Source: an uncultured Candidatus Binatia bacterium (GTDB taxonomy: Bacteria > Desulfobacterota > Binatia > UBA9968 > JAJDTQ01). Taken from it: a stretch of DNA of 64,000 bases. Location of the stretch: contig OZ219754.1 of the NCBI GenBank assembly GCA_964291295.2, positions 2,688,001-2,752,000 of the forward strand, in the 5' to 3' direction. Shown one piece after another: positions 35,384-42,837 of the stretch (position 1 is the first letter of the stretch; every line of letters starts with the position of its first letter). The notes under the pieces were generated by a model. It did not search any database. It saw only the letters and a program-made list of their open reading frames with translations, and was not told the DNA's origin. A program made the translations under genes and the position numbers.

Positions 35384-36082
35384 ATGGCCTCGGCGAAAAA
35401 GCGTATTCTGCGAAGGGACATCCGTCAGCCGGACCGGTTCATGGTGTGGACCGGCCGATTCCTGGATCTGCTCAGGGCTTACCGGGCGCAGTTGATCTAT
35501 GCGGGTGCCGCGGCGGTGGCGGTGGCGGTGGCCGTGGGTGGCTGGCAGTACTACCGCACCTACCAGCGGGATCTTGCGTTCCGGCACTACGACCAGGGAC
35601 TGCAGGAGTATCGGGAAGGCCGCTACGACGCGGCCGTCGAGACATTCCGCAGTCTCAAGGACCGTGGCGTGGCGCCCTACGACGTTCTTGCCGAACTCTA
35701 CATCGCCAACAGCTTCCTTGCACTCGACCAGCCGGCCAACGCCGTGACGACGCTCGGCGGCTCCGCGGTCGCCGGCCGGGAGGGTTTTCTCAAGCAGGTG
35801 GCGCTCGTGGCCCTCGGTCTGGCCCAGGAAATGAACGGCTCGTGCGAAGAGGCGGTGCAGTCCCTCGACCGTGCTCTGGAGCACCCGGGGCCTTTGCGCC
35901 AGGAAGCCATGCTCGGCAAGGCCCGCTGCAACACCCGGTTGGGCAAGACGCAAGACGCGGTGGACACTTACAAGGCCTATCTCAAGGAATTTCCCGAGGG
36001 CGAGACCGTCGAGGTCGCGTTGCGGATGCAACGGCTGGAAGCCGAATCGGGAAACTCGCCGTCACCGGCCGCGCAGCAATAG
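35384..36082 (+). CDS. Membrane-anchored TPR protein (YfgM-like)
   Basis: Basic N-terminus with PDRF, single TM, several TPR-like helices. Confidence 0.7.
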   Translation: MASAKKRILRRDIRQPDRFMVWTGRFLDLLRAYRAQLIYAGAAAVAVAVAVGGWQYYRTYQRDLAFRHYDQGLQEYREGRYDAAVETFRSLKDRGVAPYDVLAELYIANSFLALDQPANAVTTLGGSAVAGREGFLKQVALVALGLAQEMNGSCEEAVQSLDRALEHPGPLRQEAMLGKARCNTRLGKTQDAVDTYKAYLKEFPEGETVEVALRMQRLEAESGNSPSPAAQQ

Positions 36083-36211
36083 CCGCGGCCAACCTCCAGG
36101 ACAGGACAAGAACCGGATTCGAGGCGCACCATTGGGGTTTGCCCGGCGTGCCTCCGGAGCCTGCCGGCTGCCTCTCGGGCGCCCCAACCCGCGATCGACA
36201 TCCGACACCAA

Positions 36212-36239
36212 ACGTCCGATAATGTATATTATGTCAACT
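36212..36239 (+). other. dif: dif site (XerC/XerD chromosome dimer resolution site)
   Basis: ACGTCCGATAA-TGTATA-TTATGTCAACT versus E. coli dif GGTGCGCATAA-TGTATA-TTATGTTAAAT. Intergenic, AT-rich in a GC-rich context, at the switch from + to - strand genes. Confidence 0.88.
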
Positions 36240-36497
36240 ACTGGAGGTGTGGCCGGCACGCATGGGGGCGTTCCGGTCCGGCAGCGTTCGAGGCCTGACT
36301 TCTCGTGGGGAATCCGGTTTGGCCGCCGGCCCCCCTTCCCCGGACCTGACGGCGGATGGGGCACGCGCTGAAAGGTTGCGGCAGCCCTTGAGGTCGGAGA
36401 TGCCTGCCAAGCGGGGCGCCTGTCCGTGAGGGTACCGCGGCCGAGGCTGGTGCGGCTGAGAGGGTTGGTTGAATTGGCTGAACTGGCAGCGGCGAAC

Positions 36498-37535
36498 CTA
36501 CCGCTCCACCGGCAACTCCGCGTCGTTCCATGCCAGCAGGCCGCCGGCCAGATTGGAGACGTCGGTGAAGCCGGAGCGGCCCAGGATGGCCGCGGCGGTC
36601 GCACTGCGCATGCCGGCACGGCAGAGGGTCACCACCGGGCCTTTCTTGTGCTCGTCGATCTCCTCCAGGCGCGTTACAAGCTCCCGGAGCGGGATGAGCA
36701 CACTGCCGGGCAGGTGGCCGAGCTCGCCCGAGTATTCGGCAGGCTCGCGCACGTCCACCAGCAGCGGCCGGGTGTCCGAAGCCAGCAGGCGCCGGAGCCC
36801 CTGGATGTCGATTTCCCGAACCTTCTTGAGCTCGCTCCAATCCGGAAAGCTGATCTGGCCGCTGCCGAGGGCGGACTGGTTGGGCTGCAGGACCTCCTGG
36901 ATATTCTGCGGCGGCGAGAGCTGGAGGTTGTTCATCAGGTCGATGTATTCCTGCCGGGTTCGGTTGGCGAGGCGCGGGTTGCCCTGCCTTTCCCGGCCGA
37001 TGGTGGATGTGGTGTTGCCGCGGTAGTCGTGGCCTGGGCGAACGATGGTTCCGTCCGGCAGCGTAAAGAGCTTCCGGGTGACGGCGTCGAACTGGGCACC
37101 GGCGTCGCCGCCCGCGAAGTCGGTACGTCCGGAGCCGCCGATGAACAGGGTGTCACCGGTGAGCACGTTCCCTTCCACCAGCAGGCTCATGCCGTCCGGG
37201 GTGTGTCCGGGGGTATGCAGGACGCGAATCCTGAGATCTCCGACTTGAATCTCGTCGTCCTCCTCCAGGTGCATGTCGACGGCCGGACTCGGCGCCCACT
37301 TCTGCATGGCGAATCGCGACCCCACCAGAAAGCGCAATTGCGGGCAGCCGCTGAGATGATCGGCGTGGGTATGGGTATCGATGACCAGATCCAGCGTGAG
37401 GCGGTGGTAGGCCAGCACCGCGAGATATCGGTCCACATGGGCGTGGAGGGGATCCACCAGGATAGCGTGTCCCCTGCCCTCATCGCCGATCAGGTAGGTC
37501 TTGCAGCTTTCACCGTTGAGTTCGCTCAGGATCAT
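36498..37535 (-). CDS. Persulfide dioxygenase (MBL fold, ETHE1-like) fused to rhodanese
   Basis: THTHADHLSG, HTPGHT, GRTDF, PGHDY; C-terminal LVDVRE...GHLPGS...CRAGMRS...LAGGLLAW. Confidence 0.92.
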   Translation of the reverse strand: MILSELNGESCKTYLIGDEGRGHAILVDPLHAHVDRYLAVLAYHRLTLDLVIDTHTHADHLSGCPQLRFLVGSRFAMQKWAPSPAVDMHLEEDDEIQVGDLRIRVLHTPGHTPDGMSLLVEGNVLTGDTLFIGGSGRTDFAGGDAGAQFDAVTRKLFTLPDGTIVRPGHDYRGNTTSTIGRERQGNPRLANRTRQEYIDLMNNLQLSPPQNIQEVLQPNQSALGSGQISFPDWSELKKVREIDIQGLRRLLASDTRPLLVDVREPAEYSGELGHLPGSVLIPLRELVTRLEEIDEHKKGPVVTLCRAGMRSATAAAILGRSGFTDVSNLAGGLLAWNDAELPVER

Positions 37536-37556
37536 GGAGACCGGGTCGAAAGGGCA

Positions 37557-38714
37557 TCAGAAATAACGCCAGAGCCACCATTTCTCGAACAGGAGCTTGC
37601 TCCAGTAGATCATTCGGGATGGGCCCCAGGAACGTGAGTCGGTGGCGCCGAAGGGGGGCCATCCCTGAGGGTATATGGTGCGGTTGGCGGCGGCGCGTCC
37701 CGCGCCGCAGGCGAGCAGTCATATCGTGTGCAGGTGCAGGGTCGACAACTCTCCTTCTCCGGTGATCTCCGCCACGAGATTGTCCGCCACCACGTCGGCT
37801 TCCTGGTGCGCCACGCCGCCGGCCTTGGAGGCGGGCATGTCGGCGCAGTCGCCGATGGCGTAGACATTTTCCCACTTGGTCTCCAGGGTATCGTAGTCCA
37901 CCTGGATGCCGGTCTCCCGTTCCGCCAGCCCGCATTCGTAGAGCACTCTGGAGGGGCGGTGCGGCGGTACCATGAACAGGAGGTCGTAGGAAAGCTCGTA
38001 GCCGTAGAGGCCGTGGACCCGCTGCTTCTCGGCGTCGATGGACTGCACGATGAAGTCGTAGTGGATGGAGACGTTGCGTTTCCTGCTCTGGGAGTCCATC
38101 CACACCAATGGCAGGTGTTCCTCGCCGGCGGGCTCGGGCTCCGGGGTGAAGTATTGCAGGGCCACCAGGTCGCGGATGTTGCGTTCCTTGAAATAACTAT
38201 CCAGCATCCACTGGGCTTCATAGGGTGCGGGCGGGCAACGGTAGGGGCCCTGCGGCACACCCACCAGCACGCGTCCTTCGCGGAAATGGTCGAGGGTGGT
38301 CCTGAGCCGCAGGGCGGCGTCCATTTCCCAGGGATGGTGCGCCCCTTCGGCGAAGCCGGGAAGCAGGTCGGGTCTGACCTCAAGACCCAGGGAGACGATC
38401 AGGTAGTCATAGGGGATGGCGGTACTTTCGAGAACCACCTGCCGGCGGCCGGGATCGATCCCCAGGATCTCCGCCTGGAGCACCCGGAGGTTGCGCTTTT
38501 CCAGACGCTTGAGCTTTCGCGTGATATCCTCGGGGCGGCGTTGCCCCACCATCACGAACAGGAAAGCCGGCATGTAGACGTGGTCGGCCCGGCGGTCGAT
38601 GAGGATGATGTCGTGGTCCGCTCCCAGCGCGCGGCCGAGCTTGGTGGCCGCGACGATGCCGCCGCTGCCGCCGCCGAGTACGACGATCTGTTTGCGTCCG
38701 TTGTGGTAATGCAT
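37557..38714 (-). CDS. sqr: Sulfide:quinone oxidoreductase (type III/FCSD-like), predicted selenoprotein with UGA332=Sec (385 aa by readthrough)
   Basis: GGGSGG FAD motif, YRCPPAPYE (first catalytic Cys), YAIGDC, SKAGGVA. After TGA 37719-37721 the frame continues LLACGAGRAA...PSRMIYWSKLLFEKWWLWRYF* to 37557. Confidence 0.8.
37690..37708 (-). promoter_or_regulatory. Putative bacterial SECIS hairpin
   Basis: mRNA UGA-cugcucgccu-GCGGCGCG-GGA-CGCGCCGC: perfect 8-bp stem with a G-containing apical loop 18 nt after the UGA. Confidence 0.6.
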
Positions 38715-38732
38715 CCCTGATGGCCGCCTTCC

Positions 38733-38942
38733 TCAGGAGGCCGTCCGCTGCCGCCGCCGCGCGCGCAGGGCCAGACCTTTCAGGCTGCGCATGCGCCGGT
38801 CCCGCCACATGCGCTGCTCCTGCCGTCCTTCGTCGGTCAGTTCCGATTCGAACCGCGAAGTGCCCCGGATCAGGAGCAGCACCAGGAAATCGGAACATCC
38901 CTTGAGCTGCTCCGCCATCCACGTGAAGAGTCCGCCGGACAT
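38733..38942 (-). CDS. Small hypothetical protein (69 aa)
   Basis: MSGGLFTWMAEQLKGCSDFLVLLLIRG...; GC-rich third codon positions; fills the gap between the dapA-like gene and sqr on the same strand. Confidence 0.55.
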   Translation of the reverse strand: MSGGLFTWMAEQLKGCSDFLVLLLIRGTSRFESELTDEGRQEQRMWRDRRMRSLKGLALRARRRQRTAS

Positions 38943-38955
38943 CACAAACCGTCCA

Positions 38956-39921
38956 CTAGCGAAGGAACGTGTCTTCGTGGGAGAGCTGGATCGCCGCCTG
39001 GTCAAAGGCCGCTTCGTCCGGCTCACCGTCTCCCAGGATGCCGATCTGACTCAGAAACTGCCCGATCTGGACATGATCCCTGGGACTTACCGGAGCATAG
39101 GGCCGGGCCGGGTCGCCGATATCCACCCCGAAGTGCTTCAGTGCCGACTTCATGATCGGCGGCAGCCCGTAGGCGCCCCATTTCCCCGGGAAGAGCGTAA
39201 AGCAGCGCTGCCAGTAGCGCGCCTTGTCGATGTCCCCCTCCCGGAACGCCCTCGCCACCCTGGCGCCGATGCGGGTGCCCGGAGGCGGCATGGTGGCCCC
39301 GGCACCGCCCATCATGAGGGTGGTCAGCAGCGGCTGCATGGTGGTGAAGTAGCTGGCCTTGCCGGCCAGGTGCACCTGCTCGATGAGTCGCGTGATCTTG
39401 GTGATGTCCCGCGAACTTTCCTTGAAGTAGTCGACTTTTTCCAGTTCGCTCAGCCGCACGAAGGCATCCAGCGGCGGATCGGCGCCGGGGCCGGGATTGT
39501 GGTAGGCGACGATGGGCAGCGGGCTGACCGACGCCACCTCGGTGAAGAACTGCACCAGGTCGGCGATGGTGGGCTGCCCGCCCCACGGACGGATGGGCAT
39601 CAGCACCTGGATGAGGTCGCCGCCCGCGGCGGCGGCATGGTCCGCCAGTTCGAGAACGGTGTCGATGGAATGGCTGGACGCCCCGAGAATGACCGGCACG
39701 CGCTTGTTGACGATTTCGGTGGCGCGCCGCATGACGTCCTTGCGTTCCTGGAGGGACAGCACGGTGTATTCCGAGGCTTCGACGGCGGCCACGGAGATGG
39801 CATCGCAGTCGGCCACGAGAAATTCGATCTCCCGGGCCAGCGCATTGTAGTCAACTTTCCCGTCGTCCGTGAAGGGCGTAAGCGCCGCTCCTATGATTCC
39901 ACTGATGGGCTTCGCCAGCAT
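38956..39921 (-). CDS. Dihydrodipicolinate synthase family (class I aldolase) protein
   Basis: ALTPFTDDGKVD, LSLQER, YHNP, Schiff-base Lys in YFKESS. Confidence 0.88.
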   Translation of the reverse strand: MLAKPISGIIGAALTPFTDDGKVDYNALAREIEFLVADCDAISVAAVEASEYTVLSLQERKDVMRRATEIVNKRVPVILGASSHSIDTVLELADHAAAAGGDLIQVLMPIRPWGGQPTIADLVQFFTEVASVSPLPIVAYHNPGPGADPPLDAFVRLSELEKVDYFKESSRDITKITRLIEQVHLAGKASYFTTMQPLLTTLMMGGAGATMPPPGTRIGARVARAFREGDIDKARYWQRCFTLFPGKWGAYGLPPIMKSALKHFGVDIGDPARPYAPVSPRDHVQIGQFLSQIGILGDGEPDEAAFDQAAIQLSHEDTFLR

Positions 39922-39992
39922 CCATCACCTCTCGGGGATTGAGTCGGGACAACCGATGGTCATGTGTTCCGGGGAATGGACCCGAATCGCCG

Positions 39993-40643
39993 TTAGATCT
40001 CGGCGACGATTCTGGCATGGGCGGCGTCGCTTCCCCGCACCTTCAGGGGCAGCGCCATGATACGGCTTTTCCGTCCCGCGATGGCCCCCAGATTGGTTAC
40101 GTTCTCGGCGATCAGGATGTCGTTTCCCAGCAGGGTCCGATGTACCGGGAAGGCAAATCCCTTGGGCCGCAAGGGGGTCGGCAGATCCACCGTGATACAG
40201 TCGATGCCGAACAGCTTCACCCCGCGCGCCACGATCCATTCCGCCGCATCGACGGACAGATAGGGGTGCATGTTGTATGTTTCGCTTTCGAATTTCTCGT
40301 CCCATCCGGTATGCAGCATGAGGATGTCTCCCCGCTCGACGGGGACTCCCGAGCCTTCGAGGTCGGCAGCCGTGACCTCCTCCCCCCCGCTCTTCTCCAC
40401 GGAGATGACGACACCCGGACCGACGAACGCATCAAGGGATAGTTCCTCGATGGACTTGCCGTCGGGTATGATGTGAACCGGCGCGTCCACGTGAGTTCCG
40501 GCATGACACGGCAGGGTGATCTCGGTGACATTGAGGGGATGGCCCTTGCCGAGGTCGAAGAACCGCTGCACGTGCACGTCCGGAAGCACGGGGATCTTGG
40601 GCATGCCGTCGTAGATTATCCGTGAAAGATCGATCATGGACAT
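39993..40643 (-). CDS. Cyclase family metal-dependent hydrolase (kynurenine formamidase-like)
   Basis: IDLS, HAGTHVDAPVH, GID, VHRTLLG, IAENVTNL. Confidence 0.92.
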   Translation of the reverse strand: MSMIDLSRIIYDGMPKIPVLPDVHVQRFFDLGKGHPLNVTEITLPCHAGTHVDAPVHIIPDGKSIEELSLDAFVGPGVVISVEKSGGEEVTAADLEGSGVPVERGDILMLHTGWDEKFESETYNMHPYLSVDAAEWIVARGVKLFGIDCITVDLPTPLRPKGFAFPVHRTLLGNDILIAENVTNLGAIAGRKSRIMALPLKVRGSDAAHARIVAEI

Positions 40644-40678
40644 GGTGGTGTTCCTGAGGGGTCCGGGCGCCCGCGCTC

Positions 40679-41419
40679 TCAGGTGCGGTGCCAGGCGGCG
40701 TAGATGGCATCCTTGTCGACGAAGGCTCTCCGGATGCCGTCGAAGGCCAGCCAGAACTGGTCCAGGGTCTTCTGCACCGACTGTCGCACCAAGTCCTGCT
40801 GCTGGTCGGTGACGGCGTACTTCCGCACCGCTTCGGGCCCCACCTTCATGTGCTCTTCGTCCACTCCCATGTGAAGCGTCCAGTAGCGGATGTCGTCGCT
40901 TTCCCGGTCGAAGCCGTAATGGGTCGTCAGTCCGGTGACGATGCGGCTCATGCGCTCGCTGGCGGTGCCTTCCAGGCAGAACCCCTGGCAGGCATACAGT
41001 TCCAGCCACGAGCGCTGGTACATCAGCAACTCGCGCCAATCGAGAAACGCCGATGTCTCGGGCAGCGGCCGGACCGAGTCCAGTTCCTCCTTGGACTCGA
41101 AACCGCAGGCCATCGCGAATCTGATGAAAAGGCCCCGGTGGCTGTCGGTGCCGGAGATCTCGCCGGTGCCCTCCTCCACGACATTCTCGATCCACATCCT
41201 CTCCAGCTCGGCGTCGTCGGGACAGCGCCCCAGCATGGCCGCGATGGGCTTGGGGAAGGGCTTGGGGAAAAAAAGATAGAACTGCCCCACGAACCCCTTC
41301 AGCGCCTCCCGGTCGATCTCTCCCCGTTCGATCATCCCGATCATCGGATTGTCCTTGGAGTGCTTGGCGCGAACCGTGTCCATTATTTCGCTTACAAACG
41401 CATCACCGGCAAGAGGCAT
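40679..41419 (-). CDS. Heme-oxygenase-like diiron enzyme (CADD/PqqC/TenA-like fold)
   Basis: ENVVEEGTG...SH, CLEG and YWTLHMGVDEEH form the HDO iron-ligand pattern. Confidence 0.82.
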   Translation of the reverse strand: MPLAGDAFVSEIMDTVRAKHSKDNPMIGMIERGEIDREALKGFVGQFYLFFPKPFPKPIAAMLGRCPDDAELERMWIENVVEEGTGEISGTDSHRGLFIRFAMACGFESKEELDSVRPLPETSAFLDWRELLMYQRSWLELYACQGFCLEGTASERMSRIVTGLTTHYGFDRESDDIRYWTLHMGVDEEHMKVGPEAVRKYAVTDQQQDLVRQSVQKTLDQFWLAFDGIRRAFVDKDAIYAAWHRT

Positions 41420-41620
41420 GAATCGGCTCCTATGAAATCGGCTCCCCGAGTCGGCTCCCCGAGTCTTTCGGGGATTTCCGGTAAAGGCCATCCCTGTACC
41501 GACACGGCGGTGCCGGCAACGCGGGTGGATGTCCTTCACCGCAATGGAAACGGTTGCTTGAGTGGGACTGGTTACTTGAAAGCCCGATGAATGGCAAATG
41601 GCGCCGCTGCTTCCGGACCG

Positions 41621-42643
41621 TCAGGCGAGTCCGTAGAAGCGTCGGGCGTTGTCCCCCAGTATGTTCTGCTTGTCTTCCCGGGAAATGTCGCTCCGCTCCC
41701 AGATCAACGAACCGGATTCCGGCCAACTCATGTCCCAGTGGGGATAGTCCGACGCATACATGATCGTCTCGGAGCCGATCTCCCCCACGACGTAGCCGAT
41801 GGTTTTCTCGTCGGGCTCGCAACCGTAGAACACATTCCTGCTGGCGAGATAGCGGCTGGGCTCCTGCCTGCATTCGGGGGCCTCCACCGCCCCGCGCTTC
41901 TCCCACTCCTCGTCCATGCGGTCCGACCAGTAGGGGATCCAGCCGCAGCCGATCTCGAGAAAACCGAGCTTCAACTCCGGAAACATCTCCGGAATGCCGC
42001 CAAAGATCATCGCCGTGAGCTGGCGCAGCACCGGGAACGGGTGGCCGGTGGTGTGAATGGAGATGAACTGGTCGAAGATCTCGCTGCCCGGCTCGTCGCC
42101 GCCAAAGGCGTGGACGGCCAGCGGGGTGCCGAGCCGCTGCGCCTCCTCGTAGAGCGGATAATACTCGGGAGCGCCCAGGTTCCTGCCATGGCCCTGGGCC
42201 GCCAGCATGCCGCCTGCCAGTCCGAGTTCCGCGATCGCATGGCGCAGTTCCCCGGGCGCAGCCGCCGGGGCGTTGACGGGCAGGTTCGCCACCGCCTTGA
42301 GCCGGGGAGACGCCTTGCAATAGTCGGCGATGAATTCGTTGTAGGCCCGGCACAATTGCGTCTGGTAGCCGGGCTCGCGAATGCGGCCGATGCCCAGCCC
42401 GCTCGTCGGGTACATGACCGCGGTGTGGATCTCCTGAGTGTCCATGGCGGCAAGACGCTCCTCATGCCGTATGCCCGCGTGTCCGAGTGTCCCGCCAAGG
42501 TTGCGGTCATAGGTTTCCCGCGGAATGAACGGCGGCCGCCGGTTCCGGAAAGCCTCGCCCAGGAACGGCTTCACCAGGTCATCGTTGTCCCTCGCGTGGG
42601 CGTCGGCGTCGATCACCTTGACAGTCGGGTCGATCTTTCCCAT
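41621..42643 (-). CDS. Amidohydrolase family protein (Amidohydro_2)
   Basis: IDADAH, RAYN, PLAVH, LEIGCGW, ASDYPHWD, ILGDNARRFY. Confidence 0.92.
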   Translation of the reverse strand: MGKIDPTVKVIDADAHARDNDDLVKPFLGEAFRNRRPPFIPRETYDRNLGGTLGHAGIRHEERLAAMDTQEIHTAVMYPTSGLGIGRIREPGYQTQLCRAYNEFIADYCKASPRLKAVANLPVNAPAAAPGELRHAIAELGLAGGMLAAQGHGRNLGAPEYYPLYEEAQRLGTPLAVHAFGGDEPGSEIFDQFISIHTTGHPFPVLRQLTAMIFGGIPEMFPELKLGFLEIGCGWIPYWSDRMDEEWEKRGAVEAPECRQEPSRYLASRNVFYGCEPDEKTIGYVVGEIGSETIMYASDYPHWDMSWPESGSLIWERSDISREDKQNILGDNARRFYGLA

Positions 42644-42837
42644 GTTCGTCTCCCTCGGTGGTCTTGTGGCGCACGTGATCCAACACACTACCAGTTCCGG
42701 TCCCGGATGCAAGCCATCCGGCTCCGTTCGCCGCCCCGGTTCCCGCTCCGAAACCGTGACCGCCCCCGCCTCGCGCCATTCGTCCGGGCTCCACCGCCGC
42801 TCTGGAATGGAAGCGGCTTTTCTGCGATTCTTCCACC

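Follow-up and report, generated by a model that had tools for sequence, protein, structure and literature searches.

A conserved in-frame UGA, very probably read as selenocysteine, in a sulfide:quinone oxidoreductase-like gene of uncultured Binatia

Introduction

Where does a sulfide:quinone oxidoreductase (SQR)-like protein of an uncultured Candidatus Binatia bacterium end? We analyzed a stretch of 64,000 nucleotides (contig OZ219754.1 of assembly GCA_964291295.2, positions 2,688,001 to 2,752,000; hereafter the window), in which a minus-strand open reading frame (ORF) runs from an ATG at 38714 to a TGA at 37721-37719 and yields a product of 331 residues with the C-terminus ...LHLHTI. Past this TGA the frame stays open for 53 further codons (LLACGAGRAAANRTIYPQGWPPFGATDSRSWGPSRMIYWSKLLFEKWWLWRYF) and is closed by a second TGA at 37559-37557, 21 nt before the ATG of the next gene at 37535. 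An earlier note on this DNA had pointed out the open frame, its 53 codons and the 21-bp gap, all of which are confirmed in the sequence. The note had proposed selenocysteine (Sec) as residue 332 of a 385-residue Cys/Sec SQR, and had named four findings that would count against this proposal: a genome lacking selABCD, a TGA private to this assembly, a TGA out of register with the catalytic cysteine, and an unconserved downstream segment. None of the four was found. The observation is correct and the selenocysteine interpretation is supported by the comparisons reported here. We consider it very probable that the locus is a real, conserved selenoprotein gene with an SQR fold, whose UGA is read through as Sec at the C-terminal catalytic position. 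The full coding sequence would then occupy 37557-38714 on the minus strand (385 residues plus the true stop TGA at 37557-37559), with U332 encoded at 37719-37721 (minus strand) in the motif H-T-I-U.

Results

The in-frame TGA is conserved and the codons beyond it are constrained

A six-frame search of 41 related genomes, the window's own included, identified 36 with a full-length match that contains exactly one TGA, at 67-94% identity; these 36 represent three families and ten genera of one order. The remaining five, one of which is 76% complete, yielded either nothing orthologous above the threshold or just a remote paralogue or a fragment. With named metagenome-assembled genome (MAG) records added, the clade comprised 109 loci at ≥60% identity (observed 63-94%). 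The two search sources overlapped in genomes, and removal of duplicates left 81 unique sequences, which carry submitter labels of several phyla. In 103 of the 109 loci the homologous TGA was followed by a stop exactly 54 codons on. That terminal stop was TGA, TAG or TAA depending on the locus, and hence TGA also serves as an ordinary stop in these organisms. Among the six exceptions, the TGA is present in L130 shortly before the end of its contig, three loci stop short of the site, and the alignments of L132 and L145 are each broken in two, with frameshift errors as the probable cause. The SQR match of L136 likewise lies in two pieces, and an assembly frameshift error is probable there as well. 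No clade locus that reaches the site, among the 109 examined, had a sense codon at the Sec position.

For codons 333-385, the median pN/pS (nonsynonymous to synonymous differences) over 76 pairwise comparisons with the window was 0.17, versus 0.27 for codons 1-331, which indicates that the segment downstream of the UGA is under purifying selection. Even Cys-type relatives at about 30% identity keep residues of this tail: across the Sec and Cys clades K373 does not vary, and conservation of F376 and W382 reaches 90% or more. The TGA is therefore not private to this assembly, and the 53 codons after it are conserved. A recent TGC/TGT to TGA nonsense mutation, which the earlier note had allowed as an alternative, is contradicted by the TGA in 103 of 109 loci and by the selection on the tail. 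In contigs of three DNA runs no alternative letter was seen at 37719-37721 or in the hairpin described below; the three runs belong to one study and one of them may be the source of the assembly, and they do not count as independent support.

The recoded position coincides with the second redox cysteine of SQR enzymes

In a phmmer comparison with PDB sequences, U332 (entered as C) aligned with the cysteine of YTSCPLV in human SQOR, and C160 of YRCPPAP aligned with the cysteine of VKCAGAP in the same protein. These two residues, Cys379 and Cys201, are described as the two ends of the active-site trisulfide of human SQOR (PMC11039317). In a 56-sequence alignment, each of the 20 stop-free homologues has Cys in the Sec column, as does the paralogue encoded in this genome (23% identity). 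The UGA is thus in register with the catalytic cysteine by three comparisons: Cys-type homologues, own paralogue, and human SQOR. The first redox cysteine, which had been placed in YRCPPAPYE, is present in the 331-residue ORF (Cys160 codon at 38235-38237, minus strand, in the CPPAP motif) and matches Cys201. The proposed UxxxC context did not hold: among 77 orthologues just 39% have Cys at position 336 and the others carry Tyr, Phe, Leu or Met, and a UxxxC redox motif was rejected on this ground.

The remaining features of the protein agree with an SQR-type flavoprotein. The N-terminal GGGSGG (residues 14-19; 38658-38675, minus strand) is a Rossmann GxGxxG motif for binding of flavin adenine dinucleotide (FAD), and G14, G16, G18 and G19 were invariant among 47 sequences, in which C160, P161, A163 and P164 were invariant or nearly so. 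Pfam domains Pyr_redox_2 (E 3.9e-21) and FCSD_central were found, together with a weak match to TIGR03169, a flavoprotein family whose name refers to a connection with SelD. With the 47-sequence alignment as input, the AlphaFold model reached a mean predicted local distance difference test (pLDDT) score of 91.9, and the tail was modeled with high confidence as two strands and a terminal helix at 367-384. Foldseek template-modeling (TM) scores were 0.86 for human SQOR, 0.84 for Aquifex SQR and 0.82-0.85 for Acidithiobacillus ferrooxidans SQR, and lower for flavocytochrome c sulfide dehydrogenase (FCSD; 0.80-0.83) and NDH-2 (about 0.73). The Trp-rich helix (MIYWSKLLFEKWWLWRYF; 37563-37616, minus strand) carries K373, F376 and W382, which are conserved across the Sec and Cys clades. 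It corresponds to the membrane-type C-terminal helix that had been expected, and is presumed from the model to be a monotopic membrane anchor that would be made only upon read-through of the UGA.

Human mitochondrial SQOR (PDB 6oi5, 8dhk), a type II SQR with a Cys201-S-S-S-Cys379 trisulfide, was the best match among solved structures by sequence (E 5e-31) as well as by fold. Unlike the window protein it has Cys rather than Sec, is mitochondrial and lacks a small partner; the two share about 21% identity. The Aquifex aeolicus SQR (3hyv), the A. ferrooxidans SQR (3t2z and others) and FCSD (1fcd, 3vrd, 5n1t) are, like the window protein, two-dinucleotide-fold flavoproteins that share both redox-cysteine positions, but all are Cys enzymes. 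Sequence E-values to these bacterial structures were weaker (1e-13 to 1e-26), and the Aquifex match spans residues 8-383, including the C-terminal helical region. FCSD is a soluble periplasmic enzyme that pairs with a cytochrome c subunit; no cytochrome c domain was seen in the neighboring genes of the window that were scanned, and the window protein has a predicted C-terminal helix of membrane type.

The genome encodes machinery for selenocysteine insertion

The genes selA, selB and selD form a cluster at C1:687733-691807, outside the window, with scores of 503, 365 and 374 bits for SelA, SelB and SelD, all above the curated cut-offs. A tRNA-Sec(UCA) was found by aragorn at C1:3122135-3122229, with an 8-bp acceptor and 5-bp T stem (the canonical 8/5 form), a 6-bp D stem and a long variable arm. 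The suggestion that the genome might lack selABCD is refuted by these four genes. The selD gene has its own in-frame TGA at an N-terminal ...AAG-U-AAK... site, so the genome has at least two selenoprotein genes. A second tRNA-SeC call by aragorn, at C1:3567074-3567173 (complement), has poorly paired stems and is probably a false positive.

A conserved hairpin follows the UGA

Ten nucleotides past the UGA, the window contains the perfect 8-bp stem with GGA loop that the earlier note had claimed, formed by GCGGCGCG (37708-37701), GGA (37700-37698) and CGCGCCGC (37697-37690). RNAalifold analysis of the 81 unique sequences identified one element, of somewhat different shape: a 6-bp stem with a 5-nt NGGNC loop, 11 nt past the UGA. 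In the window this candidate for a selenocysteine insertion sequence (SECIS)-like hairpin occupies 37691-37707 (minus strand) after an 11-nt spacer (37718-37708), with the stem C-GGCGC (37707-37702)/GCGCC-G (37696-37691) and the loop GGGAC (37701-37697). Where the first loop base is G, the stem lengthens to 7 bp and the loop shrinks to 3 nt; the window is such a case, and its stem reaches 8 bp (37708-37690). The conserved form of the candidate element is the 6-bp stem with a 5-nt loop and not the 8-bp stem with GGA. Pairing in the stem was retained in 448 of 450 cells (99.6%), with 14 one-sided, wobble-compatible changes and two unpaired cells. A shuffle control of the pair count was uninformative, as the stem columns hardly vary.

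The stem spans codons G337-A338-G339-R340-A341, and constraint at synonymous positions was examined over the 113 conserved four-fold-degenerate codon columns of the gene (mean third-position entropy 1.48 bits). The three lowest values were those of R340 (0.10 bits), G337 (0.17 bits) and A341 (0.29 bits), which are exactly the third positions paired in the stem. Substitutions at these three positions were from C to U only, with G-U pairs retained, while the two third positions in the loop varied freely (1.67 and 1.24 bits). In P0006 and P0009, two clade members without Sec that are described below, the stem-coding G-A-G-R is replaced. On these grounds the hairpin is likely, but not proven, to act as a SECIS.

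The minimal SECIS of Escherichia coli fdhF is a 17-nt upper stem-loop located 11 nt past the UGA. The window-clade element resembles it in being a 17-nt hairpin starting 11 nt past the UGA with G in the first loop positions. It differs in having no bulged U, no clade-wide lower stem and an NGGNC loop, and binding by SelB is putative.

The codons flanking the UGA (37716-37724, minus strand) also showed local constraint. All 71 sequences with Ile at position 331 use AUA for it, the least frequent Ile codon in the rest of these genes (84 of 1497). On the 3' side of the UGA the adjoining codon was mostly CUG, and its first base was C in 79 of 81 sequences.

The window clade is distinct from the curated selenoprotein SQR family

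Prediction of a selenoprotein SQR is not new. The family NF049943 (NCBIfam; type III SQR, selenoprotein subtype) was predicted in 2025 by deep-Sep in Desulfosediminicola (PMC12013277), and its motif HxxU is listed in a 2026 review that credits the deep-Sep paper (PMC13188914). The statement in the earlier note that no biochemically characterized Sec-SQR is known stands insofar as our literature searches returned none, nor any description of the window's clade; the subtype itself, however, had already been predicted and curated as NF049943.

Both groups have H-x-x-U at the C-terminal catalytic cysteine (HTIU in the window, HATU or HAVU in NF049943), both include Cys-type homologues, and both keep the CPxAP cysteine. 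They differ in sequence (about 32% identity), in tail length (53 residues in the window clade versus about 93 in NF049943) and in the hairpin, which in NF049943 has an 8-bp CGAGAAGG/CCUUCUCG stem and a GGUC loop 17 nt past the UGA, compared with the 6-bp GC stem and NGGNC loop 11 nt past the UGA in the window clade. The NF049943 group scored 652-669 bits against the model, including the Sec loci L049 and L053 from another family of the phylum (663.7 and 652.5 bits), and the Cys paralogues of these two loci scored alike.

In a maximum-likelihood tree, the window clade (25 representatives, with the Cys protein P0006 nested within and the Asn protein P0009 beside them) fell on one side. The other side held the NF049943 group, whose Sec forms are nested among Cys forms, together with L058 on a longer branch and six Cys proteins of 38-41% identity; Cys-type lineages come between the window clade and NF049943. 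Constraining all Sec forms to one clade, a group named after inspection of the tree, cost 575 log-likelihood units (approximately unbiased test, p 2e-5), and at least five changes between Sec and non-Sec states were needed on the tree. The window clade probably reflects a second, independent recoding of the same catalytic cysteine, although the direction of change is not fixable without a reliable root. Sec-SQR as such has already been predicted; the window clade is a separate, uncurated and mis-annotated branch with its own hairpin.

Database entries end at the Sec codon

The mis-annotation is systematic. Among the 120 best protein-database homologues, 117 terminate in H-x-[ILV], where the Sec codon follows, with lengths of 329-359 residues and names such as 'NAD(P)/FAD-dependent oxidoreductase' or 'sulfide:quinone oxidoreductase'. 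Miscalling of the gene as truncated had been anticipated and is what these entries display. The three exceptions are P0006 (385 residues, Cys), P0009 (383 residues, Asn) and one frameshifted entry. P0006 has E-P-G-K and P0009 has G-P-G-H in place of G-A-G-R, replacements with which the hairpin stem cannot be encoded. P0009 reads HDLNFIS at the Sec position and CPPALYE where others have CPPAPYE, and by its sequence may be a non-catalytic derivative.

Neighboring genes

Upstream of the SQR gene lies a small ORF of about 61 residues from its ATG (38736-38918, minus strand), with its stop at 38733-38735, 18 nt before the SQR start. Its open frame reaches 39026 and many database versions are about 27 residues longer at the N-terminus, leaving the start uncertain. 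The consensus of the encoded protein is SD..L...L..TS.F..ELT..G..EQ..WR.QRLRNL.GL; no family match was found in Pfam or NCBIfam, and 35 representatives were present among 1.84 billion proteins. The small ORF lies between a DHDPS-like gene and the SQR gene, and tblastn detected it in 78 of the 81 unique loci; each of the remaining three has only 0-2 nt of upstream sequence. In seven loci (L120, L125, L127, L128, L129, L137 and L148) it is fused in frame to the SQR N-terminus, which we take as evidence that the two products act together; all but L125 are labeled Acidobacteriota or Acidobacteria. The TGA of the small ORF, which in the window is in frame with the SQR start, was considered as a second recoded codon and rejected, since the gap in relatives is often not a multiple of three and the stop is TAG or TAA.

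Further upstream is a same-strand run at 38956-42712 (minus strand), ahead of the small ORF and the SQR gene. It consists of an amidohydrolase_2 gene (41621-42712), a TenA/haem-oxygenase-like iron enzyme gene (40679-41539), a cyclase-family, arylformamidase-like gene (39993-40640) and a DHDPS-family, class I aldolase-like gene (38956-39921; Pfam DHDPS E 2.8e-32, below every NCBIfam cut-off). Synteny across the clade comprises the DHDPS-like gene and mostly the cyclase gene too. Of the 81 unique loci, 76 have the DHDPS-like gene upstream in the same orientation, among them every one of the 75 with at least 1 kb of sequence on that side, Acidobacteriota-labeled loci included. These upstream neighbors were not found in the roughly 1.5-kb flanks of NF049943 and of the nearest Cys-type loci.

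Downstream, 21 nt past the SQR stop, is a gene for a metallo-beta-lactamase-fold and rhodanese fusion (36498-37535, minus strand; Pfam Lactamase_B and Rhodanese) resembling a persulfide dioxygenase/sulfurtransferase. Its best NCBIfam match was Blh (bifunctional sulfur transferase/dioxygenase), a partial match below the cut-off. This neighbor fits a route from SQR to persulfide dioxygenase to rhodanese. A promoter and terminator scan of 36300-39200 gave nothing above shuffle expectation.

Orthologues at 64-70% identity also occur in MAGs labeled Verrucomicrobiia, Chloroflexota and Acidobacteriota (L094, L107 and L126, and the Acidobacteriota-labeled L120, L127-L129, L137, L139, L140, L143, L148 and L149). 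The Acidobacteriota-labeled orthologues form a separate, well-supported subclade with the fused architecture. The phylum labels point to horizontal transfer of the DHDPS-like gene together with the SQR gene, or to mislabeled bins.

Discussion

The evidence makes probable a full account in which the gene encodes a 385-residue, FAD-dependent, membrane-anchored enzyme of SQR fold whose C-terminal redox cysteine is replaced by an encoded Sec. SelB with Sec-tRNA(Sec) would bind the 17-nt GC hairpin 11 nt past the UGA and insert Sec. Sec is a better nucleophile and leaving group than Cys, has a lower pKa, and would speed the exchange steps of the reaction. By homology to human SQOR, and following the trisulfide-bridge model drawn from that enzyme (PMC11039317), Cys160 and Sec332 would hold a bridging sulfane sulfur beside the FAD, and sulfide would open the bridge. 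The residue at the Sec position would carry the outgoing persulfide to an acceptor, after which the selenolate would attack the Cys160-persulfide-flavin adduct, regenerating the bridge and leaving FADH2 to reduce quinone. The Trp-rich C-terminal helix, available from read-through only, would anchor the enzyme in the membrane, and in the window's genus the product may pass to the persulfide-dioxygenase/rhodanese fusion encoded 21 nt downstream. SQR activity as the physiological function is the reading we favor from motifs and fold, with less assurance than the selenoprotein assignment itself.

Several results weigh against this account. The SQR function is assigned from fold and motifs only, and against NF049943 the window protein scores 256.8 bits where the cut-off is 525. 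An Rfam scan of 36000-42000 at E up to 1 returned no match. The 450 stem cells counted contain no compensatory change; of the covarying hairpin that had been put forward as a check, conservation and synonymous constraint were found, but compensatory covariation was not. Folding of the single window hairpin gave z = -0.69, with 43 of 200 shuffles folding as well. A single-sequence fold is therefore at chance level in this GC-rich DNA, and the case for the hairpin rests on its conservation across relatives. Moreover, G337 and A341 are conserved in distant Cys-type relatives too, such that constraint on RNA and on protein can be only partly separated. The constant neighbors (DHDPS-like gene, small protein, cyclase and TenA-like gene) are not sulfur-oxidation genes, and adjacency of the metallo-beta-lactamase-rhodanese gene is confined to one genus, the group at 88-94% identity (44 of the 109 loci before deduplication).

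These neighbors are the substance of the alternative that survives best, namely that the protein is a genuine SQR-fold selenoprotein with a physiological reaction other than sulfide detoxification. Its substrate might be a different sulfur or selenium compound, or it might serve as a (per)sulfide/selenide reductase or oxidase, in either case together with the small subunit and the DHDPS-like, cyclase and TenA-like genes. The DHDPS-like gene upstream in 76 of 81 unique loci (Acidobacteriota-labeled ones included), the small ORF in 78 of 81 loci and its fusion to the enzyme in seven, the cyclase and TenA/haem-oxygenase-like genes in the same strand run, the lack of such neighbors in the flanks of NF049943 or the nearest Cys clade, and the weak match to TIGR03169 with its SelD link all fit such a reaction. 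In its two catalytic residues, its fold and its C-terminal helix the protein is nevertheless of SQR type, a persulfide dioxygenase-rhodanese gene comes next in this genus, and conserved gene order among related organisms need not imply a shared pathway. On account of the conserved upstream context we keep this alternative as unlikely but worth serious consideration. We advance only tentatively, and as one joint claim, the picture of a second, independently recoded Sec lineage with a two-part enzyme that includes a partner of about 60 residues, and with a cassette (amidohydrolase, TenA/haem-oxygenase-like, cyclase and DHDPS-like) whose chemistry would not be classical sulfide detoxification.

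Read-through of the UGA without Sec, by a near-cognate Trp or Cys tRNA or under a reassigned code, is much less credible. Sequence by itself is compatible with it, and the C that follows the UGA in 79 of 81 sequences creates a context that is leaky in E. coli. Yet TGA is also used as a true stop of the same gene in many relatives, beside TAG and TAA, which shows that the code is not reassigned. Further, the genome has a complete Sec machinery, the recoded position is that of a redox cysteine, and the hairpin lies at the spacing expected for SelB. That the TGA is a real stop of a truncated or decaying 331-residue SQR, with the downstream frame a remnant or a separate small gene, agrees with the gene callers in 117 of the 120 best database homologues but can be practically dismissed: a nonsense mutation would not persist at one codon in 81 unique sequences down to 63% identity, the next 53 codons are in frame, under purifying selection and end always exactly 54 codons on, a protein cut short there would be missing its second catalytic residue and its membrane helix, a contiguous 385-residue Cys orthologue (P0006) exists, and the tail lacks a start codon context for separate translation.

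With the gene read as a selenoprotein, a systematic annotation error is corrected in entries that now lack both the second catalytic residue and the membrane helix, in a clade that the sole curated selenoprotein model for this enzyme type misses. The clade offers a second, probably independent exchange between Cys and Sec at the same catalytic position of SQR, and its candidate SECIS hairpin illustrates clearly how an RNA signal can be embedded in the codons of a conserved Gly-Ala-Gly-Arg-Ala peptide. The small protein, conserved and occasionally fused to the enzyme, is a candidate subunit of no known family. Finally, the natural Cys (P0006) and Asn (P0009) variants provide a comparison for the role of selenium in persulfide and trisulfide chemistry at the flavin.

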